Positions 7,521 through 57,709 of a stretch of 64,000 bases of DNA are shown here, one piece after another. The position numbers and the translations under genes were made by a program. The stretch comes from a virus (Duplodnaviria > Heunggongvirae > Uroviricota > Caudoviricetes), in the IMG/VR virus record IMGVR_UViG_3300047445_000122, one strand, 5' to 3'. Each line of letters begins with the position of its first letter. The first letter of the stretch is position 1. The notes under the pieces were generated by a model. It worked only from the letters and a program-made list of their open reading frames with translations, was not told the origin of the DNA and did not search any database.

Positions 7521-8851
7521 CCGATCAAACCCACGGCTATGACTTCCAACATCAATTCAACATCTATGACATTCTGATCTACCGCGACGGCTGGGCTGAA
7601 GCCGACAAGCTGGATTTGAAGAACATGATGATGGAGTTGAACATCTATGAAGACATCTTCAACGCCTCTGTGACAGCCCAGATTTTCTTCCTGGACATGA
7701 CTAACCTCGTGGACAACTTCCCGGTCGTGGGCGGCGAACGCATAGACATTCGCTACAACACTCCAGGACAGAAGGAAGTCCAGACCCTGGCGATGGTTGT
7801 CGGCTCCGTGGGGAATCGCGTGAGGCCGATGTCTAATAGCCAGTATCAAGGCGTTATCCTGAACCTCGTGACCCCGGAACGCTACAAGGACGTGAATCTG
7901 GACTTGTCCATGTCGTTCAAGGGGCCATACTCACAGATTGTCAAGTCCATTCTTCAAACCCTGTCGAAGGATCGCAAGTTGTACTCCGACACGACTTTGT
8001 ATTCACAAACCTTCATTGCTCCATACTGGTCTCCTCTGAAGTGCTGCCGTCAAATTGCTGAGCGCTCCATGGGCCCGAAGTATGAGCCATTCCTGTTCTA
8101 TGAAACCACTGACGGTTACAACTTCAAGTCTGTGTTGAATCTGTACACTGCGAAGCCGTATGCGAAGTTGTTCATCATGCCAGGTAAAACAGGCAACCTC
8201 CCACCGGAGAAGGCCCGCAGGAAGGTGATTGAATATTCTGATGCCAAGGCTACAGACCGCATCCGTCAATGTTTCGAGACAGCATTCGGGGGCAGTGTCA
8301 CGACACTGGACACAACCATCGGACGCTATGTGGATGGATCGCAGAGTTACTCCCACATGGCCATGTCCAAGGACTTCGCCAAGGTCGATCAATTCCCTCT
8401 CGTGGATAACATGGATGGGAACCGCAACAAGAGTGAGTTGTTGATCGCCAGGGCTGACAAGTCTCATGAGGGGTTCCAGTACAAGCAATCCATCCGCAGT
8501 CTCATCGACAACTACCGCTACAAGGTTAAGGTGCCCGGTGACTCAGGATACCACGCCGGACAGATCATTGAGCTTGATGTGCCTGATGTGAGTATTACTA
8601 AGTACAGAAGAGAACAAACGACATCTGGTAGATGGTTGATCGGTTCCCTGAAACACACCATCAAGCGTGACTCGTTCTACACCACACTTGAGTTGTTGAA
8701 GGACAGCCATACCTACGACATCGCCAGCAAAGTGAAGGGAAAACCAAAGTATGACCCGACAAGAGCAAATACAGGCTCAAAACCGACAGATGAGCCAAGT
8801 CAGGTATCCACAAGAGACCAGACCCCAAGCAGCAAGACCTCCGACAGCTAA
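7517..8851 (+). CDS. Baseplate hub protein (gp27-like)
   Basis: LNIYEDIF....TAQI...D..NL...PVVGGE motif; position between gp53 and tape measure. Confidence 0.7.
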   Translation: MTDQTHGYDFQHQFNIYDILIYRDGWAEADKLDLKNMMMELNIYEDIFNASVTAQIFFLDMTNLVDNFPVVGGERIDIRYNTPGQKEVQTLAMVVGSVGNRVRPMSNSQYQGVILNLVTPERYKDVNLDLSMSFKGPYSQIVKSILQTLSKDRKLYSDTTLYSQTFIAPYWSPLKCCRQIAERSMGPKYEPFLFYETTDGYNFKSVLNLYTAKPYAKLFIMPGKTGNLPPEKARRKVIEYSDAKATDRIRQCFETAFGGSVTTLDTTIGRYVDGSQSYSHMAMSKDFAKVDQFPLVDNMDGNRNKSELLIARADKSHEGFQYKQSIRSLIDNYRYKVKVPGDSGYHAGQIIELDVPDVSITKYRREQTTSGRWLIGSLKHTIKRDSFYTTLELLKDSHTYDIASKVKGKPKYDPTRANTGSKPTDEPSQVSTRDQTPSSKTSDS

Positions 8852-10871
8852 ACCACTACCCAAGACCCCGACACTCCAAGATGAGTTGAAGGGTCTGAAG
8901 GCTGCAGAGCAAAACGAGTCTGCTGAGATGAAAGAGGCTATCAAAGCCTCTTTCTCAGAAGCGGCCAAGAAGTTGAAGGGCAGTCCATCTGAACAGAAAC
9001 AAGCGCTGAAGACCCTCCAGAACTTGAAGACTGAGGCTGAGCGATTGATCAAGACCACCTCCGATGGCGACGACAACCTGTCTGAGAAAATCGAGGAGTT
9101 GGTCAACGACAACAAGAAGGGCTTCAAGCTCTGGTCCAAGATTGGAGACAAGCTGGATGAGGGCGGTGAAGCAGCCCTGAAGAACATCAAGTCTAGCCTT
9201 GCTGAGAGTTTCGGTGAGGTGGGCGTGTTGACTCAGAATCTTGGGAAGGCAGCATTCTCACTCGGCAAGAAGGCGTTTGGGAAGGGTGACGATGAAGAGC
9301 CAGCCAAGGTCCAGCGTGTTGCGAAGGAACCGGAGCCAGCCGCCAATGACCCGGCTCCTGTGGCGACCCCAAAGAGCGATTCGACGCCGGAAGGCAAACC
9401 ACAAGCCCAAATCATCGACATCACTCCATTCTTGCAACCCATGCGGGAAGATATGGCGGCGATCAAGCAGTCAGCTGACAAACAAACGGATGTGGTGTCG
9501 AAGCTCGCCACCCGTATGGATGACAACTCTCTGAACGAGAACTTGTCTGCCATTAAGTTGTCTACAGATAAGCAAACAGACGCTGTTTTGAGCCTGGTGA
9601 CACGCCTCTCCACACAAACTCCTGCGACGGAGCCAATCGCTGCTCCTAGCCCACCTCCGATGGCTCAGAAGATCACAAAGGAGGCAGTCAAACCTACCCG
9701 TCAGGAGAAAAAGAACTTCAAGAAGGATCAGTTGGCTCAACATGCACTGGCATCCCGTACCGGAGCGCCGCAGCCATCGGAGTTCGCTGAAGCGGCAAAG
9801 AACCTGGACTTGTTGGATCCGATTCATGACAAGCTGAGTATCATCGCTGACGCTACCCAAGAGCAATTGAAGTTGACTCAGAGCTCAAGCCTCATGAACA
9901 ACAGCAATGAACTCCAAGCTGCGAAGCCGGGAGGTGCTGGTGGTGGTGGTGATATCCCTGTTCCGGCTTCTGCTGAGAAGAAGGCGAAAGGCTTGTCGAG
10001 TGATGGTATTGGCTCCCTGTTGGGCGGTATCATTGGTTCAATCGGCAAGGGCGGTATCCTCGGAACCCTCAGCACTGTCTTCACTGCGGTGACTGGATTT
10101 GTAGGTAAGTTCATGAAGCCACTCCTGGGGCTGGGTAAGACGCTCCTGTCTAGCGGCAAGATGATCCCTATCATTGGTCAAGTCGTTGGTATTGTCATGG
10201 CATTGTTTGACTTCATGGACGGTTGGAACAACGCAGCCTCAATTCTTGGGAAAGACGGTAAGCTGTTGACGGTCTGGGACAAGTTCTCAGCAGCCATTGG
10301 CAGTGTGATCGGCGGTCTCGTGAGTTTGGTGGACGATGTCCTGGGCCTGTTCGGGATTCAAACCAGCTTCGGAGACACAGTCAAGAAGGCTGTGGCAACC
10401 TTCATCGATGAGCTCCCTGGCAAGGTCATGGCCTTCTTCGATGACACAATGAAGGACGTGAACGCTGTGATGGCTTCATTCGGCACTTCATTCCTGGAGG
10501 GTATCACGAATCTGGGTAAGCTGGCGTTGAAGACATTCCTGACGACGATTCCTGGTGGATCTGCTCTTGCCAAGATGGCAGGGTTGGATTTGTCAATCAA
10601 GGGCGGTGCAGAGAGCAAGCCATCTGGCGGCGACTCGAAACCGGCTGGCGGTCTGAGTCCTGTGACGAAGCCAACAGCATCCTTCGCTCCGAAGGCTGAG
10701 GCGAACTCACAGACCATCAAGGAAAGTGAACGCGCTGCTGCGACTCCTGTGGCCCCGGTTGTGGCATCGACTAACAACAACCAACAGGTGGTCAACAATA
10801 ACACCTACTCAAGCTCACCTCTCTCCACTAGGGGTGGTGACGAAGACAGCCACCGTTACGGGTTGGTGTAA
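8751..10871 (+). CDS. Tape measure / hub protein (gp29-like)
   Basis: 706 aa, helical with Gly-rich amphipathic region and NNNQQVVNNN C-terminal patch; follows hub. Confidence 0.7.
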   Translation: MTRQEQIQAQNRQMSQVRYPQETRPQAARPPTAKPLPKTPTLQDELKGLKAAEQNESAEMKEAIKASFSEAAKKLKGSPSEQKQALKTLQNLKTEAERLIKTTSDGDDNLSEKIEELVNDNKKGFKLWSKIGDKLDEGGEAALKNIKSSLAESFGEVGVLTQNLGKAAFSLGKKAFGKGDDEEPAKVQRVAKEPEPAANDPAPVATPKSDSTPEGKPQAQIIDITPFLQPMREDMAAIKQSADKQTDVVSKLATRMDDNSLNENLSAIKLSTDKQTDAVLSLVTRLSTQTPATEPIAAPSPPPMAQKITKEAVKPTRQEKKNFKKDQLAQHALASRTGAPQPSEFAEAAKNLDLLDPIHDKLSIIADATQEQLKLTQSSSLMNNSNELQAAKPGGAGGGGDIPVPASAEKKAKGLSSDGIGSLLGGIIGSIGKGGILGTLSTVFTAVTGFVGKFMKPLLGLGKTLLSSGKMIPIIGQVVGIVMALFDFMDGWNNAASILGKDGKLLTVWDKFSAAIGSVIGGLVSLVDDVLGLFGIQTSFGDTVKKAVATFIDELPGKVMAFFDDTMKDVNAVMASFGTSFLEGITNLGKLALKTFLTTIPGGSALAKMAGLDLSIKGGAESKPSGGDSKPAGGLSPVTKPTASFAPKAEANSQTIKESERAAATPVAPVVASTNNNQQVVNNNTYSSSPLSTRGGDEDSHRYGLV

Positions 10872-10873
10872 AG

Positions 10874-10908
10874 AAAAAGCCCCTGGATCACTCCAGGGGC
10901 TTTTGTTT
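10874..10908. terminator. Bidirectional terminator
   Basis: AAAAAGCCCCTGGA/TCCAGGGGCTTTT between convergent genes. Confidence 0.85.
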
Positions 10909-10910
10909 GT

Positions 10911-11174
10911 TCAGACTTCCATCTCACGCATTATGAAGCTGATGATGTCCCGCCGTTCATGCAACTTACCAGTCGGGGCCAGGTAGCGATGGTTGCGGGT
11001 TCCGCTCGCAATTTTCTTGATCACTTCCTTGACGTCTTCATCAGTCATTCCTGCGTGGACCAGTCGGGCTTGGTACACTCGCTTGACCTTGCGGAAGACC
11101 TCATCAGCAGTAGGAGCGGCGGGCTTGTCGATCTTCATACCGCCAGTGCGAGGGTCGAAAACGAATTTGGGCAT
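10911..11174 (-). CDS. Hypothetical early protein
   Basis: AAAGGAAC SD; own early promoter. Confidence 0.75.
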   Translation of the reverse strand: MPKFVFDPRTGGMKIDKPAAPTADEVFRKVKRVYQARLVHAGMTDEDVKEVIKKIASGTRNHRYLAPTGKLHERRDIISFIMREMEV

Positions 11175-11209
11175 AATGTAGTTCCTTTCAGTTGGTGTGA
11201 CTGAAGGAT

Positions 11210-11242
11210 ATTATACCTCAACTATTGAGAAAGTAAAGTGGT
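11210..11242 (-). promoter_or_regulatory. Early promoter
   Basis: CCACTTTACT-N16-TATAAT. Confidence 0.8.
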
Positions 11243-11245
11243 ATT

Positions 11246-11584
11246 TTACCGGCGATGAATTTGACCGCTACACAATGTCTTCTCAACCTCTCCGTCCATA
11301 CCCACAACCTCAAAGTACACTGAGAAGCGCATGTGGGTCTTCGGAACTTCCGAGTCCAACAGCTCAATCCAAATATAGCGTGGGTCTGCGTCAACGTGCA
11401 GTAGATGTTCCAGGAATGGCTTGTCGTCCTGGTAGGACTTGAAGCGGATGACCGCTGGTTGATACTTGTCGAACCTCACCAACTCACCTTCCTCATCAAC
11501 CACAGAGATACGGCGTGCGACGTCATCGCCAATGTACATATGCAATGTCTTCCGGCGCGTGGAGTTTCTTGGGATAATGCTCAT
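11246..11584 (-). CDS. Hypothetical protein, probably late
   Basis: GGGAGG SD; ATAAGTA late-type box on minus strand at 11620-11626. Confidence 0.7.
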   Translation of the reverse strand: MSIIPRNSTRRKTLHMYIGDDVARRISVVDEEGELVRFDKYQPAVIRFKSYQDDKPFLEHLLHVDADPRYIWIELLDSEVPKTHMRFSVYFEVVGMDGEVEKTLCSGQIHRR

Positions 11585-11624
11585 TGTTCCTCCCTATATA
11601 TTCATGTAACACAACAACCTACTT

Positions 11625-12266
11625 ATGAAGGAACCAACCATGCGCCACCAACGGAAAACGAAACAACCGACTGCTCAACACCCTCTCCAGAAGCTGTTGA
11701 TGGCTCAACAAGGTATGGATGACATAGTCCCCAGCTTTAGCGTACCACTGCCTGACGACCAGGTGTTCTACATCTATGGTGAGATCGAGGAGGAGCTGGA
11801 CTATGTGGATATGATTCACTCCATCCGCTACGCCTCCCCTGGTCAACAGATCGTCATTCACATCGCCTCCCCAGGCGGTAGCTTGAATGTGTGTTTGGCA
11901 GTGATCAACGCGATCCGCGCCTCAGCCGGGGAGGTCATCACCATCCTGGACGCTGAAGCTTGCTCAGCCGCAGCCATGATCTGGTTGAGTGGTCACAAGA
12001 AGATCATTGGCTCACGCCACACCTATCTGATGCTGCACGAAGCGGGTTGGGTCGCCGGGGCGAAGACCTCAGAGCACGCCCGTCAGGTTGAGATCATGAA
12101 GAAGGTCACCAACGGACTGATTGAGGAAATCGCCGGGAAGCTGTTGACCACAGCTGAGATGGAGGACTTGAACAAGGGTGTGGACGTGTATCTGTCCGGC
12201 ACTGAGATCACCGAGCGCTGTACTGTTTCACCAGCTGAAGACGGTGGTGAAGAAGTCCATAGCTGA
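11625..12266 (+). CDS. clpP: ClpP-like serine protease
   Basis: YIYGEI, IHIASPGG, ACSAAA (Ser nucleophile), LMLHE (His). Confidence 0.88.
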   Translation: MKEPTMRHQRKTKQPTAQHPLQKLLMAQQGMDDIVPSFSVPLPDDQVFYIYGEIEEELDYVDMIHSIRYASPGQQIVIHIASPGGSLNVCLAVINAIRASAGEVITILDAEACSAAAMIWLSGHKKIIGSRHTYLMLHEAGWVAGAKTSEHARQVEIMKKVTNGLIEEIAGKLLTTAEMEDLNKGVDVYLSGTEITERCTVSPAEDGGEEVHS

Positions 12267-12316
12267 CCCCTGGTGTGGCCCTGTGGATTGTGGCTTTCTA
12301 AGCCTGTCCTAGACAG
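12263..12316. repeat. Bipartite element, inverted copy of 44913-44967
   Basis: CTGACCCNNGGTGTGGC-N24-CTGTCCTAGACAG. Confidence 0.65.
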
Positions 12317-12364
12317 AGCCTAAAATTGACCTAAGTCAAATTGCTGATGTGGAATTCAGACAAG

Positions 12365-12399
12365 AAAAATGCCCTGGGAGCGATCCCAGGGCATTTTGT
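12365..12399. terminator. Bidirectional terminator
   Basis: GCCCTGGGA/TCCCAGGGC stem with A/T tracts. Confidence 0.8.
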
Positions 12400-12642
12400 T
12401 TACAGCTGTTGGAACGGGACTTGAATGATCATGTAGTCCATCGCCGGGAATTCCAACCGCCCTTCATCGTTCGAGGAGTGGACAGTACATACCCCACCAG
12501 GCGCGAAGAATCCCACAGTATCAGTCCCGTAAAGGCCAACGTGGTGACCTTTCTCGTTGTAGAAGAACATGACGGCATCGCCATGCTCAGACTTCACGGC
12601 CTCTTTCCAGGCATGGAGGGAAAATGGATCAGTTTGGCTCAT
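12400..12642 (-). CDS. Hypothetical early protein
   Basis: AAAGGAAC SD; early promoter at 12684-12716. Confidence 0.7.
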   Translation of the reverse strand: MSQTDPFSLHAWKEAVKSEHGDAVMFFYNEKGHHVGLYGTDTVGFFAPGGVCTVHSSNDEGRLEFPAMDYMIIQVPFQQL

Positions 12643-12719
12643 GCTGTAGTTCCTTTCAGGTTGATGTTGTACAACTGAGAACAATTATACTCCATCAACC
12701 TGCTCAAGTAAAGTGGAAT

Positions 12720-12941
12720 CTACTCGTCATCGTATGTGCTGGTCTTCCGGGGCCAGAACGTGTCCACGATCGCGTAGAACAGGGCGGTGATCGGGAAGAT
12801 CAAAGTCAGGGACAGGCGCAGGAGGAGCAACAACACCAATACCACTGCGTCCTTGATAAGGCTCAGATCATTGCCCAGACCCTCCCAGTTGGTCAGGAAG
12901 ATGAGGACATATTGCCACCAGAGTTTCAGGAATTTCATCAC
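12720..12941 (-). CDS. Small membrane protein
   Basis: Hydrophobic segment; GGAG SD. Confidence 0.6.
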   Translation of the reverse strand: MMKFLKLWWQYVLIFLTNWEGLGNDLSLIKDAVVLVLLLLLRLSLTLIFPITALFYAIVDTFWPRKTSTYDDE

Positions 12942-12947
12942 TGCTCC

Positions 12948-13142
12948 TTACAGAGGGAGGATCGCGTCAACAGGCAGGGCCAACTCACCCGGCTTCGTTT
13001 CAGCGTGGTTCTTGGGGTTGACTTCCTTGAGCTGGGCGTGTTGCACGCCACCGATCAAGCGGAAACCCAGGATCACGAAAGTGCCGGCTTTGCGACCCTT
13101 GACGATTTGATTGGTCTTGAAGTTATGGTCAGCCATGATCAC
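12948..13142 (-). CDS. Hypothetical protein
   Basis: Coupled in minus-strand early operon. Confidence 0.6.
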   Translation of the reverse strand: MIMADHNFKTNQIVKGRKAGTFVILGFRLIGGVQHAQLKEVNPKNHAETKPGELALPVDAILPL

Positions 13143-13411
13143 ATTCCATGAAGATAGTCGTTCATCGGGAGTACAGCGCTGTCGGTGGACAAGGACTCCA
13201 ACTTCAGGCTATCGCTCTTGCCGTGCAACTCGACGTCAGACAGAGACATGCTGGAGAACTCACCGGCAGAGGTAACAGCTGCGCCGACCAACTCAGGCGA
13301 CTGTAACAGTGCCTCCGCAACCAAGGAGTGGGTGAGGCTGTTCGGGAACAGGATCGGCACTTGGCGCACGGTTCCCTCGCCAATGGTTTGGGTGAACATG
13401 ATGTACTTCAT
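13139..13411 (-). CDS. Hypothetical protein
   Basis: Coupled start/stop overlaps; phage-like codon use. Confidence 0.7.
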   Translation of the reverse strand: MKYIMFTQTIGEGTVRQVPILFPNSLTHSLVAEALLQSPELVGAAVTSAGEFSSMSLSDVELHGKSDSLKLESLSTDSAVLPMNDYLHGM

Positions 13412-13716
13412 CAGAACACCATAACCGAGAACATCAGGATGCCGTCTTCAACGGTCAGGCTGATGGCCGAGCCCATGCGGAGGGTACGTTGCGATACGTA
13501 CAGTGGAGCGCCTGGTTGTTTGCCGTAGCCGTCGCTGTGGATGGCCTTGATGATCGTTGCCTCGCTCTCAGAGTTGAGCTTGATGGAAGCCCAGCTGTAT
13601 TGGATGCTGTGTGGTTCGATGGTGAAGCCGGTCTGGATGTTGTCAACATCACAGTTCAGGGTAGCACCCCAGAGAATGTGGGCCAGCAGCGACTGGGCTT
13701 TTTCTTGTTTGTTCAT
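13411..13716 (-). CDS. Hypothetical early protein
   Basis: AAGGAG SD; early promoter 13753-13785 (TTTACT-N17-TATGAT). Confidence 0.7.
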   Translation of the reverse strand: MNKQEKAQSLLAHILWGATLNCDVDNIQTGFTIEPHSIQYSWASIKLNSESEATIIKAIHSDGYGKQPGAPLYVSQRTLRMGSAISLTVEDGILMFSVMVF

Positions 13717-13829
13717 GATGTGGTTCTCCTTCAGTGGGTTGATATGTAAGATATCATAACCCACGTTCTTGAGGAAGTAAAGTGGGTTCCAAAAATAAAT
13801 TTGACCCCGTTGCCGGGGTCAGGTTCCGC

Positions 13830-14507
13830 TTACACGCGCTTGATTTCGATGCGGGCGGCTGCGGTGTCGATGTCCACGCCCTTCTTCTTGAAGAAGTCCT
13901 CAGCGTTGATCATCACGTTCAGGCTGGACACGCTCATGAATTCCTTGTAGAAGGCCACGCTGTTGTCGGCGTTGTAGCCGGTGAAGGACCAGTTCACTTT
14001 CACTTTACCGGAGGCGGTCACGACAGGAGTCACAGGAGCGGCAGACGTCACAACCTTGGTTGCTGGGGTTGGCTTGTCGCCCAGAACTTCATCCAGCAGC
14101 TTTGCGCTGTCGTCAGCCGACAGAAACTTGGCAGCTTCCATCAGACCCTTGGAACGCAGGGTGGCTTCTGCGACGGCCAGTTGGGCTGGAGTTGCGTCAG
14201 TCACATAACCCAGAGCGATCGCAGCGAACCAGCCCAGGTCAGTCAGGGTGGTGCCGGCGCTGTTCGGTTCACCCTTGGAGCCTTCCGATACGTTGAACAG
14301 ACCCTTCTTCACCATCGAGGAAGCAACGCCGCTGTAGGAGCGTGGGGTGCCTGGGAAGTGATCCGACACCGAGAACGTCCAGGTGCCGCCATCGGTGAAG
14401 TTGGCCTTGTTAGCCATCGTCACATCGCTGCTGTGATATTCGCTGTCGAAGAAAGCCTTGATTGCTGCTTGTTCGTTTGCGGTCAGGTTCAGTTTAGCTG
14501 CGGTCAT
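13830..14507 (-). CDS. Hypothetical Ala-rich early protein
   Basis: AAAGGAAC SD, strong codon bias, early promoter 14563-14596. Confidence 0.8.
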   Translation of the reverse strand: MTAAKLNLTANEQAAIKAFFDSEYHSSDVTMANKANFTDGGTWTFSVSDHFPGTPRSYSGVASSMVKKGLFNVSEGSKGEPNSAGTTLTDLGWFAAIALGYVTDATPAQLAVAEATLRSKGLMEAAKFLSADDSAKLLDEVLGDKPTPATKVVTSAAPVTPVVTASGKVKVNWSFTGYNADNSVAFYKEFMSVSSLNVMINAEDFFKKKGVDIDTAAARIEIKRV

Positions 14508-14636
14508 GATAAAGTTCCTTTCAGTGGTTTAGAGGTTCGGTCTTTCTCAACCGATGAAGAGAATTATACGTCACAATATTGATCAAGTAAAGTGGTTTAT
14601 CGAAATTTTTTAAAAATATTTTCCGCCCAACAACGA

Positions 14637-14643
14637 CTAAGTA
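14637..14643 (+). promoter_or_regulatory. Late promoter for gp5-gp25 operon
   Basis: CTAAGTA about 33 nt before ATG 14676. Confidence 0.7.
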
Positions 14644-14675
14644 TAACACTACATATCACCCAATAGGATCAGCTG

Positions 14676-15683
14676 ATGATCAAGCTAGAAAATCTGTACT
14701 ATGGGATCGTGGAAGATGTGAATGACCCATTCTTCTTCGGTCGCATGAGGGTGCGCATCTTCGGCATCCACAACAAGGACACCAACGCTGTCCCCACTGA
14801 TACCCTGCCGTGGTGTGAACCACTCATGCCTCTACCCAACCCATTCATCTCAGGCGTAGGGGTCTCACCTACCGGGATGGTCAATGGCAACATGGTTGTA
14901 CTCCTCCCGAAAGACCCAGACCTGCTCCAAGAGTGGATTGTGTTGGGTTCTGTAGGCGGTCTCCGCAAGTCACCATCCACTGGAGGGTTCCGTGACCCCA
15001 AGGGTGAGTACCCTCGCAATACAACCAATCACGACACCAATGTGTTGGTGCGCGGCAAGACCGGGGCGCAAGTCGATGTCTTGGGCGAAGGGTCTGGTGG
15101 CGACGGCAAGATGCCTTCTGGTTACGGGCCTGTTGCTGACAAAGTCGCTAACCGCACTACATCGGAGGTTCAAGCCCCAATTGACCAAGGTGTCCCACCT
15201 CCACCACCTCCAGAGACCCGGACGGACACACCATGGATGCCATTCGCAGTCCAGCAAGTGGGAGTGAATGAGACAGACAACCCAGACAAGATCAAGGAGT
15301 ATCACACCAAGGGCGGCGGCTCCTCTACATGGGGCGGTGAGGTTCCATGGTGCTCCTCTTTTGCGAACTGGGTCCTGCTCCAAGCCAGCCTCAAGGGAAC
15401 CATGCTTGCCAATGCACGCAGTTGGGACAAGTATGGAGTTGATGTTCTTGGTGACAAGACATCCATCCCATACGGAGCCATTGTTGTGATCCAAGGTAAT
15501 CGTGGTCCCAACTCAGGTCACGTGTGCTTCGCCACAGGGGTTGAGAATGGGCGTGTGAAGGTTGTTGGCGGCAACCAGGGTTCCAAGAACGCACAGAACG
15601 GAGGCGAGGTCACCAACAGCTCATTCCCATTGAGTGCTGTTGTGGCTGCTCGTATGCCTCCTGGTTTCGACAAGAAAGGATAA
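14676..15683 (+). CDS. gp5: gp5 N-terminal part: OB-fold + TIGR02594/CHAP-like amidase
   Basis: YGIVEDVNDP...GRMRVRIFGIH...LPW (gp5 OB); VPWCSSF...ARSW...GHVCF...GGNQ. Confidence 0.85.
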   Translation: MIKLENLYYGIVEDVNDPFFFGRMRVRIFGIHNKDTNAVPTDTLPWCEPLMPLPNPFISGVGVSPTGMVNGNMVVLLPKDPDLLQEWIVLGSVGGLRKSPSTGGFRDPKGEYPRNTTNHDTNVLVRGKTGAQVDVLGEGSGGDGKMPSGYGPVADKVANRTTSEVQAPIDQGVPPPPPPETRTDTPWMPFAVQQVGVNETDNPDKIKEYHTKGGGSSTWGGEVPWCSSFANWVLLQASLKGTMLANARSWDKYGVDVLGDKTSIPYGAIVVIQGNRGPNSGHVCFATGVENGRVKVVGGNQGSKNAQNGGEVTNSSFPLSAVVAARMPPGFDKKG

Positions 15684-18624: not shown

Positions 18625-19074
18625 TCATTGGAACTGGTCAAACAGTGATCCCTGGGTGGGATTTGCCTTGGCGGGCATTGGCAACGGTAGCTCCAGTTGA
18701 GGAGGCTTCCACATAGCACATGGTTTTCTCAACTTGTCCATGTAGTCACGCATATGGCGGGTTCCGGGGCTTTCGCCGTCCCAAATGCCAATGCCAACTT
18801 GAGCACGCTGAGCCATGTCAATGTTGCGCTTGATCACTGCACTGCGATCCAGCTTCCCGCCTGGTGTCCAATCCGCGTTCAGAACGCTCACTGGGAGGTA
18901 ATTGGCGCGTGTCCAATCCTCTGCCAGGGTGTCAATCCCGCCAGCACCACCAACGATCACCTCATCGATGTCTTCAATGGTCAACTCCAGTTCAACCAGC
19001 TTTCGAGCGATGACTTCAAACACCAGGTCACGATCCTTGATAGACCGGGAGCCGAATATCACCAGCTTAATCAT
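18625..19074 (-). CDS. SLOG-family (DUF2493/YspA-like) protein
   Basis: IFGSR, VGGAGGIDTLA, A.IKRN..M, WDGESPGTRHM. Confidence 0.8.
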   Translation of the reverse strand: MIKLVIFGSRSIKDRDLVFEVIARKLVELELTIEDIDEVIVGGAGGIDTLAEDWTRANYLPVSVLNADWTPGGKLDRSAVIKRNIDMAQRAQVGIGIWDGESPGTRHMRDYMDKLRKPCAMWKPPQLELPLPMPAKANPTQGSLFDQFQ

Positions 19075-19561
19075 GCTCGCCAGGGAACTCATAGCGACGA
19101 CCCATGCGGTATTGAGTCTGGATTTCCCACTCAGCACGTTCGCCGTGGGACAACACCTTCAAGTCACCCAGGTTCGAGCGGCTGGCGATGACGATCATCT
19201 CAGGCTTCAGAACTTCCACCATGTTCCAGTCCATCAACAGTCTGATGATCTTCGATTGGCGGTCAATGTCATGTTGACCAATGTGGTTCTCGCCACCGTC
19301 CAGGCAATACAGGAACTTGTAGTGGCAGATGTAGTACCGGCCTTGTTTGTGGAGAATATGGCAGGTCTGTATCAGGGTCTTGTCGCGCTTGGTACTTTCC
19401 ACACCGATGCGCTGCAGGGTCTCCCGGATACGGCGGAACACTGTGTCTGCGTCACCAACCAGCTTCACTTCCACCATATGGTCCATCACAGCTGCCAGCG
19501 AGAGACCGCGTTGGCTGATGATGTTGTAGGGGTGTACGGTTTTGATGTCGTTCATGTTCAT
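19067..19561 (-). CDS. regA: Translational repressor RegA
   Basis: FRRIRETLQRIG...KTL.QTCHILHKQGRYYI.HYK.L..LDG. Confidence 0.93.
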   Translation of the reverse strand: MNMNDIKTVHPYNIISQRGLSLAAVMDHMVEVKLVGDADTVFRRIRETLQRIGVESTKRDKTLIQTCHILHKQGRYYICHYKFLYCLDGGENHIGQHDIDRQSKIIRLLMDWNMVEVLKPEMIVIASRSNLGDLKVLSHGERAEWEIQTQYRMGRRYEFPGEHD

Positions 19562-19968
19562 GCTTTCTTCCTTCCCATTTGACCACCCTTGTCTTCCAAT
19601 CCACGCAGGAATGTCAGATCATCAGGAGACAGTAGTTTCAAGTGCTCAGCTGCTCGTTCCAGGTTCACCTGGTATGCGCGTTGTACCAACAGGAGATCTT
19701 CACTGGTCTCCTCCTTCTTGGGCCACTTCGAGAAGCGCTTGGACTTCTTCACGGAGTGGAACAGATAGGCATAGTGCATTTCCTTGTCGGTAATGACTGC
19801 CTTGTTTGCTTCTTGGGCGAACAACACCGTGTTCAGCGACTGTGCAACGCCACGGTTGATGATGAACGGGTTGTACGCTTTGAAGGCTTCTTCAGACTCC
19901 AACAGAGCGGGGTTGCCCCCGTTCTCGTTGATAGCCTTCAGGAAGTCGAATAAAGTGGGCGCTCCCAT
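19558..19968 (-). CDS. gp62: Clamp loader small subunit (gp62)
   Basis: LFDFLKAIN, YNPFIINR, HY.YL.HSVKK.KRFSKW.K. Confidence 0.9.
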   Translation of the reverse strand: MGAPTLFDFLKAINENGGNPALLESEEAFKAYNPFIINRGVAQSLNTVLFAQEANKAVITDKEMHYAYLFHSVKKSKRFSKWPKKEETSEDLLLVQRAYQVNLERAAEHLKLLSPDDLTFLRGLEDKGGQMGRKKA

Positions 19969-33950: not shown

Positions 33951-34349
33951 TTACACGACTAACTTCATCACATCATCGATCCAATTCACGATCTTGCTGT
34001 GAACCTTGTCTCTTGTATCTGGACTCATGAAGGCGACATCTTGAACCTCCAGAGTGGTGGATTTGTACTCCTCCATCAGGAATCCCACAACCTCACAGCC
34101 TAGCTTGGTCAGGTCACGCATATCAACCTTCGCAGCATCCTCGAAGCGCCCAGAGGCAACATTGCCGATCATGGTACAGATGCGGATCGTATGGGTGTCA
34201 TCCAACTCCACCACAAAGCCCACACCCTTGGAGAGGTCATCCAGGATTACCATGTGCATATCCTTGTTGAAGATAGTCATGGTACTGACCTTCGCGCCGG
34301 GGCGGCTGAACAGTTGTCCAATCTCCCCGAACATTGCTACATTGTTCAT
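33951..34349 (-). CDS. Hypothetical early protein
   Basis: GAGG SD; early promoter 34398-34427. Confidence 0.7.
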   Translation of the reverse strand: MNNVAMFGEIGQLFSRPGAKVSTMTIFNKDMHMVILDDLSKGVGFVVELDDTHTIRICTMIGNVASGRFEDAAKVDMRDLTKLGCEVVGFLMEEYKSTTLEVQDVAFMSPDTRDKVHSKIVNWIDDVMKLVV

Positions 34350-34363
34350 GCTATAGTCCTCAA

Positions 34364-34723
34364 TCAATCAGGTGCTTTATTGCTCCTGATATCAAGTATT
34401 ATACGGACTGTCCATTTGGAAGTAAAGAACTTTTTAATGGATTTCGACCATTTCTTCGCCACCAGAACGATCCGCTGTTGGATGGTTGGAGGAGGTGGGA
34501 GCGGAGTGTAGCGCTCAGCAGACTGTGGTCCCAGCCGCACGCTCTTGTAGTTCGGACCATACACCTTTGCCCATGGGAAGTGCTTCCAACAGCATCCCAG
34601 GTTTGCATGGACATTGTAGTTGTCGTGACGAAACACCATGTCGTCATCCCGGAAGGGAGCCTCACAGGTTACGCAGTGGGTCAGGTCGTGGGTCGTGCGG
34701 GCGGCAAATTCGGGCTTTCTCAC
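34364..34723 (-). CDS. Hypothetical Cys-containing protein
   Basis: AAAGGAA SD, GTG start; CxxC. Confidence 0.55.
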   Translation of the reverse strand: MRKPEFAARTTHDLTHCVTCEAPFRDDDMVFRHDNYNVHANLGCCWKHFPWAKVYGPNYKSVRLGPQSAERYTPLPPPPTIQQRIVLVAKKWSKSIKKFFTSKWTVRIILDIRSNKAPD

Positions 34724-34760
34724 TTGACATTTCCTTTTGGATACTTGATATTGATAATAC

Positions 34761-34833
34761 GAGCCAATTTGAGGTGGATTCCTGGCTTGAACTTGAGATT
34801 GTCCCTATTCCAAATCAGGGTCACAAATGTCAA
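34761..34833. repeat. Element shared in inverted and direct orientation with 38185-38294
   Basis: 20/22-nt inverted match plus GAATCCACCT (inverted); GAGCCAATTT, ACTTGAGATT, AAATGTCAA (direct). Confidence 0.7.
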
Positions 34834-34865
34834 GTCCAAGAAAAGCCCCTTTCGGGGCTTTGCGT

Positions 34866-35270
34866 TTAGTCAGCCATCAGAGTCGCGGCTGGATTGTCCC
34901 AGAACTCACCGGTGTCTTCGGTGGCATCCTCCAGGTTTTTGATTGGACCCCACACGCTTGCGTTGTGTTGAACGCCGGAACCCTCCTTCCAGGACTTCGT
35001 GCTGCCAGGCAAGACTTCATCCAGGGCCACAGCCACCTCGAAAGCGCGACGGCCTTTGATGTAGATGGTGACGTCTTCATAGCCCACGCTGCCGGCGTTC
35101 TTCTTGATCTCAGACAGCTCCTCCGGGGTGACGATGTTGTTCTTCAACATCACGGCGTACAGGCGGTCATAGGCGACGTTCGCGTTGTTGGAGTAGTGGA
35201 AGTCCAGGTCCAGGGAGCGGCCATCGAAGTGAATCATGTAGAAGCCTTCGGCGCTGATGAGAGTGTTCAT
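34866..35270 (-). CDS. Early ORFan, paralog of 35392-35769
   Basis: Own promoter, leader hairpin and terminator; GRSL...HY.NN...HNA.V.GP shared. Confidence 0.8.
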   Translation of the reverse strand: MNTLISAEGFYMIHFDGRSLDLDFHYSNNANVAYDRLYAVMLKNNIVTPEELSEIKKNAGSVGYEDVTIYIKGRRAFEVAVALDEVLPGSTKSWKEGSGVQHNASVWGPIKNLEDATEDTGEFWDNPAATLMAD

Positions 35271-35280
35271 ATTCAAGTTT

Positions 35281-35356
35281 CCTTTCAGATCGGTCTCGCG
35301 GAATTGCTCGACCTGAAAGAGATTATACCTGTGTCAAGTTGAGAAGTAAAGTGGTA
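35281..35356 (-). promoter_or_regulatory. Early promoter + conserved leader hairpin (cassette A)
   Basis: TTTACT-N17-TATAAT; GCAATTCCGC loop 35298-35307. Confidence 0.85.
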
Positions 35357-35391
35357 AAAACGAAAAAGCCCGGATTTCTCCGGGCTTTCAT

Positions 35392-35769
35392 TTACATCGC
35401 TGTACCGTACCAGGCGATGGCCAGTTTTTCTTGGCCGTCTATTTCTGGTTCATCGGTATCAACCGGGCCATACACATAGGCGTTATGATGAGCCTCAGTC
35501 TCCTGGTACCACTCTTCGGAGCCTTTCGGCAAAACGCGGTTCAGAATCACGGCAATCTCAATCGCACGATTCCGGGAGGAGAAGAACAGGGCCACATCGA
35601 GTCGCCCCATCCCGCCAATCGTTGAGTCCAGCTCCTCCAACTCATCAACCTCAACGATACCGGCAATCATTTCCATTAACCGCCTCCGGGCTGGGCCGGT
35701 GTTGTTCTTGTAGTGGTATTCGCGTGCTAGCGACCTACCCTCCACCAGAACCATATAAACATTGTTCAT
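35392..35769 (-). CDS. Early ORFan, paralog of 34866-35270
   Basis: Own promoter, leader and terminator. Confidence 0.8.
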   Translation of the reverse strand: MNNVYMVLVEGRSLAREYHYKNNTGPARRRLMEMIAGIVEVDELEELDSTIGGMGRLDVALFFSSRNRAIEIAVILNRVLPKGSEEWYQETEAHHNAYVYGPVDTDEPEIDGQEKLAIAWYGTAM

Positions 35770-35787
35770 ATTGTAGTTTCCATCTAA

Positions 35788-35850
35788 GGGGTCTCGCGGA
35801 ATTGCTCGACCTGAAAGAGATTATAGACCACTTTATTGAGAAAGTAAAGC
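35788..35850 (-). promoter_or_regulatory. Early promoter + leader hairpin (cassette B)
   Basis: Loop 35796-35805; -10 35820-35825; -35 35843-35848. Confidence 0.85.
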
Positions 35851-35889
35851 GATTTCGGAAAATAAAAAGCGCCCCGGAGGGCGCTTGAC

Positions 35890-36249
35890 TTAGTTGGACT
35901 TCCAGGGGTTTCGAGTCGCCACCGGCTTGCCGTCCTTGATCTCCACGAACGTCCTTGCGAGGCTGTTATTGTTGATGTGCATTTCCAACTCGCGCTGGCC
36001 CCTCTTCAGCGCCTGTTCTGCGTCGTGCAGTTGGTCATCCTTGAAGTCGTCCCAGGCCTGCGCCATGTACTCGGTGTAGCTCTTGGCCCCGCCGTGCTTC
36101 TTGATGGCCTTGTCTACATCACCCACGGTCAGTCCGTTCTTGCGCAGCCAGTCGATCATCCCATCAATCGGATCGCCATTCGGGAAGTATTCACCGACAC
36201 ACTCCTCAAACTTGTCGAAGATGTCTTGCAGGGTTGGTTTCTTAGCCAT
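35890..36249 (-). CDS. Early ORFan
   Basis: AAAGGAAC SD; own cassette. Confidence 0.8.
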   Translation of the reverse strand: MAKKPTLQDIFDKFEECVGEYFPNGDPIDGMIDWLRKNGLTVGDVDKAIKKHGGAKSYTEYMAQAWDDFKDDQLHDAEQALKRGQRELEMHINNNSLARTFVEIKDGKPVATRNPWKSN

Positions 36250-36269
36250 GGTGTAGTTCCTTTCAGTTT

Positions 36270-36333
36270 CAGTCTCGCGGAATTGCTCGACTTGAGAAGT
36301 ATTATAGACCACTTTATTGATGAAGTAAAGTGG
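36270..36333 (-). promoter_or_regulatory. Early promoter + leader hairpin (cassette C)
   Basis: Loop 36277-36286; -10 36301-36306; -35 36324-36329. Confidence 0.85.
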
Positions 36334-36368
36334 TCGGAGAAAATAAAAAGCGCCCCGGAGGGCGCTTT

Positions 36369-36767
36369 TCACTTACCTCGCAGGAATCTGTTCAGCCCAT
36401 ATATGTCTGGGGCGTAGCCTTCGGCGTTGACGAAGGCAGCAGCCGTGTGAACGTCCACTTCCAGGACGGCTATGTAGCGGTCAGCCCGGTGGCGGTTCCG
36501 GGGAGTGACGTCAAAGTATTCATCACCGATCTTCACCAGGGCGTGCTCAACTGGGACCATATTGTCGACCAGCAGGTATCCCAGGACATACTTCATTGAT
36601 TGTTTTTCTGGTTGTTCGCAGAGGTACAGGAAGCTGTTGTTGAAACAGCCCTTCTTCTGGGCGAAACGGAAGTCACGGAACTGGTAGCGAACCTCGTTGA
36701 TCGAGAAATTCTTGATGTTGAAGTAGTTCTGTACCAAAACCTTGATGATGTTCATTTTATTCTTCAT
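36369..36767 (-). CDS. Early ORFan
   Basis: C...P...Y.LGY....PVEHA.V.....YFDVTP; own cassette. Confidence 0.7.
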   Translation of the reverse strand: MKNKMNIIKVLVQNYFNIKNFSINEVRYQFRDFRFAQKKGCFNNSFLYLCEQPEKQSMKYVLGYLLVDNMVPVEHALVKIGDEYFDVTPRNRHRADRYIAVLEVDVHTAAAFVNAEGYAPDIYGLNRFLRGK

Positions 36768-36788
36768 CCTGTTGAAGTCTGTGGAATC

Positions 36789-36850
36789 TGGGAGGCGATA
36801 TTGCTTCCCAATATCAAGAATTATACTGGAACTAGATCAAAAGTAAAGTG
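36789..36850 (-). promoter_or_regulatory. Early promoter + leader hairpin (cassette D)
   Basis: Loop GCAATATCGC 36795-36804 in TGGGA/TCCCA stem. Confidence 0.8.
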
Positions 36851-36959
36851 ATTTTAGTAACTTTTCAGAAAATATTTTTGACTCCACTTCCCCTGCGGTC
36901 TGGGCACATCATTTGGTTTGTATATTGGAAACTCCCGGCCTGGACCGGGAGCGCTTGTA

Positions 36960-37256
36960 TTAGTGGCCTTGCTTTTGGGCCCAGGCCAGAGCCTTATTCA
37001 ACTCAGCCTTGAGTTTCTTCGCGGTCTCCCCGCCCTTCCTCCAGAACTGAAAGTTGGTGGAAGCGTAGGCAGCAACGGTCACAGCACTGTCGGCCTTGTA
37101 CTTGCCATCCCAAGAAGGAATCAAGGCCAGGGCTTCCACGTAGTGCATCATGTGGACGATGTTGGGGTCAGACTCCGTTTGGGCAGCGACGGCTGCGCGG
37201 ATGTCGTTCGCAATCTCCATTGGAGTGCGAGGTGTGAAGTTGGAATTTCTAGTCAT
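36960..37256 (-). CDS. Early ORFan
   Basis: TAGGAAC SD; strong codon bias. Confidence 0.75.
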   Translation of the reverse strand: MTRNSNFTPRTPMEIANDIRAAVAAQTESDPNIVHMMHYVEALALIPSWDGKYKADSAVTVAAYASTNFQFWRKGGETAKKLKAELNKALAWAQKQGH

Positions 37257-37308
37257 GTTGTAGTTCCTATCAGGATTGAGAGAAGCCCCCGGAGGGGCTT
37301 GGTGCTAC

Positions 37309-37593
37309 TTACGCTGGAACGTGTTCAACTGCGAAGTCGTCTGCGTCATGGCGATTGTTAGCCAGGGTGTGAACTACCTTGGCCGACAAGCTCTTGTTTT
37401 TGTTCACGATTGGCGGCTCACCACCGAACGGGAACAGGTTGAACTCACCGCTCCAGATTTCCTTCCCTTCCTTCAGGAAGGTGATGCGAGCCTTGTCGCC
37501 TGGAGACATGGAGGTCTCGCGGATTTCGTTCACACGCTTCGCAACCAGGTAAAGGTTGATGACGCCGAACGGGGTTTTGATGCTATTGCTCAT
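37309..37593 (-). CDS. Early ORFan
   Basis: TAGGAAAC SD; own cassette. Confidence 0.75.
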   Translation of the reverse strand: MSNSIKTPFGVINLYLVAKRVNEIRETSMSPGDKARITFLKEGKEIWSGEFNLFPFGGEPPIVNKNKSLSAKVVHTLANNRHDADDFAVEHVPA

Positions 37594-37611
37594 TTTGTAG
37601 TTTCCTATCAG

Positions 37612-37683
37612 TTGATATCGGAGGCGGGATTGCCTAACCGATATCAAGTATTATAGACCACGATATTGAGAAAGTAAAGTGGT
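37612..37683 (-). promoter_or_regulatory. Early promoter + leader hairpin (cassette E)
   Basis: TTGATATCGG/CCGATATCAA stem around GCAATCCCGC 37624-37633. Confidence 0.85.
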
Positions 37684-37722
37684 AGATACGAAAAAGCCCT
37701 GAATTTCTCCGGGGCTTGTATT

Positions 37723-38064
37723 TTACAGAGGATTCATCAGCTTCAGGAAGTCGCGGTATGCGAGTTTCAGGGACGTTTCCCAATCCCTCACTTCCCAAGG
37801 GACGGACATGTAAGTGCTCATATCCACGCCGTTGACCTTCAACTTGGTTTCGTCAGGAGTGGTATCAGCCATGTTCTGCGGGCAGGTGTACTTGATGTCG
37901 ATCACATCGCCGTTGGACATGGTGACTTTGATCTCACCCCGGAAGGTCTGTGCGTAACCTTCCATCTTGACTGGTACAATTTGTTCGTTGGCGAGGGCTT
38001 CCAGCAAACGGTCGATCATGCCGAGGTCTTCTGCTTCGTCACCCAAGTTGAAGTTGTTGCTCAT
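37723..38064 (-). CDS. Early ORFan
   Basis: TAGGAAC SD; own cassette. Confidence 0.75.
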   Translation of the reverse strand: MSNNFNLGDEAEDLGMIDRLLEALANEQIVPVKMEGYAQTFRGEIKVTMSNGDVIDIKYTCPQNMADTTPDETKLKVNGVDMSTYMSVPWEVRDWETSLKLAYRDFLKLMNPL

Positions 38065-38083
38065 GATGTAGTTCCTATCAAAT

Positions 38084-38148
38084 TCGGGAGCGGGATTGCT
38101 CGACCGATACAGATATTATATTGGGATGAACTTGAGGAGTAAAGTGGG
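38084..38148 (-). promoter_or_regulatory. Early promoter + leader hairpin (cassette F)
   Basis: TCGG..GAGC AATCCC GCTC CCGA; loop 38090-38099. Confidence 0.85.
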
Positions 38149-38184: not shown

Positions 38185-38294
38185 AAATGTCAATATTGAA
38201 AACTTGAGATTAGAGCCAATTTAAGCCACTCAGATGGCCGCAACTTGATCACACCCTGAATTGGAATAGGGCCACAGGCAGTCAGAATCCACCT
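38185..38294. repeat. Partner of the 34761-34833 element
   Basis: ACCCTGAATTGGAATAGGGCCA 38253-38274; GAATCCACCT 38285-38294. Confidence 0.7.
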
Positions 38295-45005: not shown

Positions 45006-45038
45006 CCACTTTACTTCCTCAATTTCGTGGCGTATAAT
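45006..45038 (+). promoter_or_regulatory. Early promoter
   Basis: CCACTTTACT-N17-TATAAT. Confidence 0.85.
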
Positions 45039-45104
45039 TCGTTTCATCGGTTGAGAAATCAACTTGAGAAAAACACTAAACCCAAATTTGATAGGAGCTA
45101 CATT

Positions 45105-57667: not shown

Positions 57668-57709
57668 CTCTTCATTGGTAGCGTAACTCAACTGAAGGAG
57701 AACTAAAGC

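Follow-up and report, generated by a model that had tools for sequence, protein, structure and literature searches.

Seven leader hairpins with covarying stems and an invariant apex in an early-gene array of an uncultured T4-type phage

The window analysed here, a 64,000-nucleotide stretch of DNA (IMG/VR record IMGVR_UViG_3300047445_000122; G+C ~52%), belongs to an uncultured T4-type phage that is PhiW-14-like and has a genome of ~165 kb. In the region between rnh/gp55 and the topoisomerase gene gp39 it carries seven leader hairpins, all on the minus strand and contained in a 3.7-kb array (34367–38107), which constitute one diverged family of promoter-leader modules. This leader hairpin family is real, statistically solid and locally amplified, and the hairpin is kept at the level of structure around an invariant apex (GCAAU and a closing GC). 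Judged from sequence, the seven hairpins would be cis-acting RNA elements at the start of seven early mRNAs, each extending over approximately 25 nt, and the interpretation that we rank first, tentatively, is an RNA operator read by a protein, with shielding of the mRNA 5′ end as a side effect.

The seven units of the array

The array occupies a hyperplastic region flanked by rnh/gp55 and gp39/gp52. Sites of the form TTTACT-N15-18-TATAAT number 15 in the window, compared with 0 expected by chance. The loop sequence GCAATNNCGC occurs exactly 6 times in the window, always on the minus strand (35298–38099) and always 14–16 nt past the TATAAT of a TTTACT-N16/17-TATAAT promoter. These six loops and the stems around them had been reported correctly in a first-pass annotation made from the sequence alone; a seventh copy, U7, is added here (GCAATAAAGC at 34374–34383, loop AAUAAA).

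In all seven units the hairpin starts 7–9 nt after the −10 element, corresponding to +1 to +3 of the predicted transcript, in agreement with its earlier placement at the predicted transcript start; assuming that transcription starts 7 nt after the −10, the stem would be preceded by 0–3 unpaired 5′ nt. The end of the hairpin is separated from an AGGA-type ribosome site by 7–12 nt in six of the seven copies and by 19 nt in U3, placing the hairpin centre ~30–45 nt before the AUG. The features of the units are as follows, with minimum free energies (MFE) in kcal/mol, z-scores relative to dinucleotide shuffles, and open reading frames (ORFs) given by length and position.

38115..38143, minus strand: U1 promoter, early-type TTTACT-N17-TATAAT; drives 113-aa ORF 37723–38064
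38084..38107, minus strand: U1 leader hairpin, UCGG-uc-GAGC-AAUCCC-GCUC-CCGA; MFE −9.6, z −2.4
37691..37717, minus strand: intrinsic-terminator-like hairpin and U run after the U1 ORF, the PeSL-type stem-loop of U2 as read from sequence
37650..37678, minus strand: U2 promoter; drives 94-aa ORF 37309–37593 and 98-aa ORF 36960–37256
37613..37646, minus strand: U2 leader hairpin, (UGAUA)UCGG-uu-AGGC-AAUCCC-GCCU-CCGA(UAUCA); MFE −18, z −5.8
36820..36847, minus strand: U3 promoter, N16 spacer; drives 128-aa ORF 36369–36755
36788..36811, minus strand: U3 leader hairpin, UUGGGA-a-GC-AAUAUC-GC-c-UCCCAG; MFE −9.9, z −2.7
36301..36368, minus strand: U4 terminator (36341–36368) and promoter (36301–36329); drives 119-aa ORF 35890–36249
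36271..36292, minus strand: U4 leader hairpin, AGUC-GA-GC-AAUUCC-GC-GA-GACU, with a tandem G.A internal loop; MFE −8.1, z −1.7
35820..35886, minus strand: U5 terminator (35859–35886) and promoter (35820–35848); drives 125-aa ORF 35392–35769
35790..35811, minus strand: U5 leader hairpin, GGUC-GA-GC-AAUUCC-GC-GA-GACC; MFE −9.1, z −2.9
35322..35388, minus strand: U6 terminator (35363–35388) and promoter (35322–35350); drives 134-aa ORF 34866–35270
35292..35313, minus strand: U6 leader hairpin, identical to the U5 hairpin
34398..34426, minus strand: U7 promoter, inside the 3′ end of 119-aa ORF 34364–34723; drives 132-aa ORF 33951–34349
34367..34390, minus strand: U7 leader hairpin, AUCAGG-a-GC-AAUAAA-GC-a-CCUGAU; MFE −9.6, z −3.8

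The first-pass annotation had described every unit as consisting of a terminator, a promoter, a hairpin and a single gene. Promoter and hairpin are present throughout, whereas U1 has no upstream terminator and U2 is bicistronic, its second, 98-aa ORF having no promoter of its own; in U7 the promoter and hairpin both fall within the last part, at the 3′ end, of the preceding 119-aa ORF. The label of ORFans given to the genes is upheld: none of the eight array ORFs has a Pfam match, the only PHROG match is phrog_13953 on the 98-aa ORF, and three array ORFs tested by tblastn had no phage match. Because the array ORFs have no recognisable function, their designation as host-takeover genes is unsupported.

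Conservation of pairing around an invariant apex

All seven copies share a common fold, in which GC-AAUNNN-GC sits on an outer stem of 4–9 bp with 0–2 unpaired or mismatched nt in between, and their MFE values range from −8.1 to −18 kcal/mol (z −1.7 to −5.8). Pairing was assessed in an ungapped alignment of five copies, all of this genome, from which U1 and U2 were left out. In this alignment 91.4% of the cells are paired, compared with 64% after shuffling, and none of 500 shuffles reached the observed value; five of the seven pairs have changed on both sides, and sliding the partner reduces pairing to ~30%. These values support the earlier proposal that the stems change in sequence while they keep pairing and that selection acts on the structure. 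When whole units are aligned, homology runs from the upstream terminator to the start codon. Nothing is invariant across the seven units apart from the two promoter boxes (−35 and −10), GCAAT with the GC after it, and the ATG; the spacers and stems are scrambled.

Other accounts of the apex were considered and rejected. Pairing of the loop with the ribosome site (UUCC/GGAA) is possible in three to five copies, U3 and U7 not among them, and leaves the conserved AAU uninvolved. Treating GCAA as a GNRA tetraloop fails in U3 and U7, where the flanking bases do not close the loop. A dimeric DNA operator is unlikely, given half-sites that vary around a fixed, asymmetric centre.

In U6 an alternative pairing of 9 bp (−10.7 kcal/mol) can be drawn (35285–35330, minus strand) between UUCAGGUCG, which lies between the −10 and the hairpin, and CGAUCUGAA, which immediately precedes the ribosome site. 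As most of UUCAGGUCG precedes the predicted start, this fold would be open only to transcripts that read through from upstream. T4 has a comparable alternative-fold device at several genes.

Distribution in the genome and in relatives

Genome sequence was read over 87 kb of the ~165 kb, made up of the window and 22.7 kb more. A covariance model built from the five aligned copies recovered both left-out copies in the window on the transcribed strand, with U1 ranking first (13.7 bits) and U2 fourth (10.2 bits) among the matches outside the training set, scores that are marginal. The model found no further copy in the rest of the window or in the additional 22.7 kb, and no convincing copy in 126 kb of relatives. 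At gathering thresholds Rfam has no match in the window; between 34200 and 38300 there are only sub-threshold, terminator-like matches. The absence from Rfam is in line with the first-pass annotation.

The element does not behave as a genome-wide early-gene signal, being confined to the array within the 87 kb and lacking from the other 14 of 21 early-type promoters. Over the first 36 nt of the predicted transcripts from these 21 promoters, the mean MFE is −5.9 kcal/mol compared with −6.0 kcal/mol for random windows. Early leaders are therefore no more structured than random windows, and a 5′ hairpin is not general to the early mRNAs of this phage.

The nearest named relative is Delftia phage PhiW-14 (gp52 45% and gp39 56% identical). 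In protein searches with gp39 and gp43, recorded contigs of the same phage were 100% identical and the next relatives 57–64% identical in gp39 or gp43, with promoters and leaders mostly unlike those of this phage; a megablast search against phages for a close relative gave no match. Loose and specific pattern scans of viral_contigs and metagenome_contigs returned single chance matches or none.

A single structural homologue is present in L187, a phage whose gp39 is 57% identical. It is a 9-bp hairpin (8292–8323) with the apex GC-AAUACAAC-GC, located 8 nt past a promoter of the form TTTACT-N17-TAAAGT. Two more promoters of L187 carry unrelated strong hairpins that start exactly 8 nt after the −10. 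L187 also has an array of small genes of its own behind TTTACT-type promoters (7727–15211), in which TCGYYTCA after the −10 and a hairpin starting exactly 8 nt after the −10 are present at three of five promoters.

Relation to PeSL cassettes and origin of the family

In the PeSL (promoter-early stem-loop) elements of T4-type phages, an intergenic stem-loop that is a terminator lies upstream of an early promoter of the sigma70-like type, with an AT-rich region between the two (Arbiol et al. 2010, PMC2839356). Through these elements genes are inserted, deleted or replaced when closely related phages are compared; a further account of the cassettes is given by Comeau et al. 2014 (PMC4122927). U2–U6 have the PeSL layout, with a GC-rich hairpin and U run, an A/T-rich stretch and TTTACT-N16/17-TATAAT. 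The likeness extends to the repetition of units before ORFans, the location in a hyperplastic region between core genes, a 96-nt repeat of 88% identity and a tandem gene duplication. The difference is that the conserved-apex hairpin is located downstream of the promoter, in the leader, and as the first-pass annotation had supposed it is outside the published element, whose stem-loop is the upstream terminator (PMC2839356). The leader hairpin is distinct from the PeSL stem-loop and forms an extra component of a PeSL-type cassette of terminator and promoter.

U4 and U5 match at 88% of 96 nt, terminator and promoter included, and the ORFs of U5 (35392–35769) and U6 (34866–35270) are paralogues with 38% identity, from which it follows that the family spread by local duplication and recombination. 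Homologues of the U5 and U6 proteins occur in unrelated contexts, or on a contig that ends 40 nt upstream.

Two further leader families are present in this genome. The second family (45049–45063, plus strand; 14537–14554, minus strand) has a common 5′ arm, CATCGGTTGAGAAA, and a GAAA apex, and the arm pairs in different registers with different 3′ arms (GGUUGA/UCAAC and UCGGU/ACCGA). The 5′ arm of U1 is identical in 13 of 15 nt to that of the second-family leader at 45038, suggesting that the leader families are of common ancestry and that each re-evolved a hairpin. The third family has four copies, one in the window (57674–57693, plus strand) and three in sequence of the same genome outside it (L184 5295–5314, 4972–4991 and 3630–3649, minus strand). 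Its members have the form TTCATTGGTAGCG-A/T-AACTCAACT, are conserved (TTCATTGGTAGCGAAACTCAACT) and lie behind early-type promoters without a stable hairpin; the −35-to-10 stretch of one copy is identical to that of U5.

Comparison with the gene 43 operator

In the T4 record, gene 43 is preceded by the regA terminator, TATAAT, 8 nt, the hairpin AGCCU-AAUAACUC-GGGCU, 7 nt, AAGGAA and the AUG. The order and spacing of these parts match the array units, in which the hairpin is likewise followed by a stretch reaching the ribosome site before the AUG (the operator hairpin itself lies ~40 nt before the AUG, with a single-stranded stretch after it), and the T4 loop also starts with AAU. In contrast, the array loop has 6 nt closed by GC/GC as opposed to 8 nt in T4, and the array hairpins precede seven unrelated small ORFs, with gene 43 of this phage located elsewhere (L184 10001–12730).

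For binding by gp43, the operator loop follows A-A/G-U/C-A-A-C/A, with a YAAC or YAAA core, in terms of the full loop sequences from systematic evolution of ligands by exponential enrichment (SELEX). The loop cores of gene 43 operators are UAAC (T4, RB69), CAAC (a SELEX variant) and UAAA (RB49), the loop being conserved and the stem variable between phages (PMC3014915). The array apex has CAAU (G-CAAU-N), of which the AA and the preceding pyrimidine alone fit this core. Although it resembles them, the array family falls outside the class of gene 43 operators.

The leader of the phage's own gene 43 was checked for the GCAAU motif as a pre-chosen test. There (L184 9921–9937), TTTACC-N18-TATAAT is followed after 15 nt by GGCGGU-GCAAU-GCCGCC, and a relative with 64% identical gp43 (L186) keeps the hairpin as UGUCAUC-GCAAG-GAUGACG. 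The leader has a two-tier fold in both phages (L184 9876–10003; L186 2030–2137), in which the GCAAU or GCAAG hairpin is the inner one and 5 of 14 pairs are compensatory, making it a candidate autogenous operator in PhiW-14-like phages. By a loose count, ~9% of the GCAAT sites in the genome lie in loops of stems of at least 6 bp. The recurrence of a GCAAU loop in the gene 43 leader is suggestive, not proof.

A putative RNA operator

An invariant apex on freely changing stems is the pattern of protein-read hairpins, whereas a plain stabiliser needs no such apex, and it is for this reason that the hairpins may be sites read sequence-specifically by a trans-acting protein, a reading that we put first with some reserve. 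Bound beside the ribosome site, the protein would repress or time translation of the gene block, as at the T4 gene 43 operator, and, positioned at the very start of the mRNA, the stem would protect it from 5′-end-dependent decay as well. Two leads to an RNA-binding protein, both circumstantial, are the T4 gene 43 operator layout and the GCAAU-loop hairpin in the phage's own gene 43 leader; the RegA-family repressor encoded in the window and the GC-AAUACAAC-GC hairpin of L187 are also consistent with protein reading. Since the layout is like that of the gene 43 operator, purified polymerase (gp43) and the RegA homologue are the obvious first candidates for the binder.

The gene for the RegA-family translational repressor is at 19067–19561 on the minus strand (PF01818, E 6e-27), directly after the clamp-loader gene gp62 (19558–19968), as in T4.

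Several observations weigh against a protein-read operator. The transcription start is a prediction, and the binder is represented by candidates only. Swapping 3′ arms between copies gives −7.1 compared with −10.7 kcal/mol for the native hairpins (sd 3.4), a modest loss that discriminates weakly, and the sense and antisense strands have equal folding energy. As the family is restricted to one 3.7-kb array within the 87 kb, common descent accounts for part of the likeness between its copies. With regard to the gene 43 leader, a GCAAU loop would turn up there by coincidence with a chance of ~0.01–0.05; its hairpin is ~65 nt from the ribosome site, unlike that of T4, and holds GCAAU wholly in the loop, whereas in the array the G and C are predicted to be paired. 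In PhiW-14 and 28 more distant IMG/VR relatives there is no comparable gene 43 leader hairpin, and most have no leader at all.

A broader proposal, which the sequences make conceivable but unlikely, is that the GCAAU-apex hairpins form an RNA regulon, in which the reader of the gene 43 leader would also bind the seven ORFan leaders and shut them off together. The simplest such reader would be the DNA polymerase when it is off DNA; failing that, it could be some other RNA-binding protein made early, for instance the RegA homologue.

Alternative explanations

Ranked second, and possible though doubtful, is a generic 5′-terminal stabiliser, in which a 5′ end with at most 3 unpaired nt blocks 5′-end-dependent attack (RNase E, RppH), the loop has no reader, and its conservation reflects descent or a folding preference. 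The 5′-terminal stem-loop of ompA in E. coli stabilises its mRNA in this way and needs no specific loop; hairpins of this type call for ~4 unpaired nt at most between the 5′ end and the stem. The array hairpins resemble it in lying close to the 5′ end as predicted, at +1 to +3 in seven of seven units, and in having stems that are free in sequence as long as pairing is kept. Unrelated hairpins occupy the same place in other leaders (45049–45063, 14537–14554 and the two in L187 exactly 8 nt after the −10), and RNase E is a major factor in the decay of T4 early mRNA (PMC3014915). What a stabiliser does not explain is the apex: its 7 invariant nt sit on stems that have changed at nearly every position, although a loop evolving neutrally would be expected to diverge faster than a stem under constraint. 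Hairpins are, moreover, absent from most of the phage's other early leaders, as seen in the folding energies of the 21 early-type promoters, and another conserved leader class (the four copies with TTCATTGGTAGCGAAACTCAACT) also does without one.

It is improbable that the hairpin has no function of its own, whether as a hitch-hiker in a copied promoter module or as a DNA-level feature such as a recombination hot spot or the product of quasi-palindrome-templated mutation. The family is local to one array, with U4 and U5 88% identical over 96 nt and the U5 and U6 genes tandem paralogues, both strands fold equally, PeSL recombination in RB49 has been mapped within a stem-loop (PMC2839356), and the U1 5′ arm shares 13 of 15 nt with an unrelated-looking leader at 45038, all of which would suit such an origin. 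However, divergence between most units has spared only the functional boxes and the apex, which argues for purifying selection on the apex; the orientation to the promoter is constant, the same apex recurs in the phage with 57% identical gp39, and a dimeric operator acting at the DNA level would conserve its half-sites rather than an asymmetric centre.

Less probable again is a co-transcriptional signal like boxB: by recruiting a factor to RNA polymerase, or by making the polymerase pause, the hairpin would let transcription run through the cassette terminators into rnh, gp55 and gp47/46 and so give delayed-early expression. In the nut sites of lambdoid phages, boxB is a short RNA hairpin close to the promoter; its apex is conserved, purine-rich and GNRA-like, its stem covaries, and it is found in early transcripts that meet terminators. 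The array hairpins are also promoter-proximal, with a conserved apex, a covarying stem and terminators downstream: each cassette closes with an intrinsic-terminator-like hairpin and the next opens with the conserved hairpin, and GCAA is GNRA-like, as are the GAAA apices at 45049–45063 and 14537–14554. Delayed-early expression in T4 via extended early transcripts and a possible antitermination factor have both been discussed (PMC2988021). On the other hand, the array has one copy per small gene and a different predicted loop fold, in which the G and C of GCAAU are paired and no GNRA fold results; the hairpin has no conserved linear element of the boxA kind beside it, an N-like protein is not recognisable, and with the hairpin at +2 there is no RNA upstream.

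The suggestion in the first-pass annotation of a single-stranded DNA recombination site analogous to attC finds no support: the hairpin keeps one orientation relative to the promoter and lies at the 5′ rather than the 3′ end of the cassette, and scanning of window genes revealed none of integrase type among those covered.

Other features of the window

The window encodes topoisomerase II (gp39 and gp52), the gp46/47 nuclease, the late sigma factor gp55 and RNase H, together with clamp, clamp loader, primase, ligase and baseplate genes. Within the array, the product of the 119-aa ORF at 34364–34723 (minus strand), whose 3′ end encodes the U7 promoter and hairpin, is Cys/His-rich and possibly zinc-binding; the ORF is preceded by a TTGACATTT(G/C)TG element that recurs upstream of U1 near 38190. 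The 128-aa U3 protein (36369–36755, minus strand) has a weak language-model similarity to phage YunG-like hypothetical proteins (scores 0.87–0.88), which serves as a lead only.

Implications for T4-type phages

For the accessory-gene cassettes of T4-type phages, the regulatory unit described in the literature consists of a terminator and a promoter; in the array of this phage a leader hairpin with a fixed apex is a third part that travels with the promoter. Were it only a stabiliser, it would constitute a compact, portable expression part; if a protein reads the apex, a block of early genes would be controlled together after transcription. The early shut-off of T4 is still unexplained (PMC2988021). 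A regulon spanning gene 43 and the array, if true, would extend the autogenous gp43 paradigm to the trans-regulation of accessory genes and would offer a handle on early shut-off in T4-type phages.

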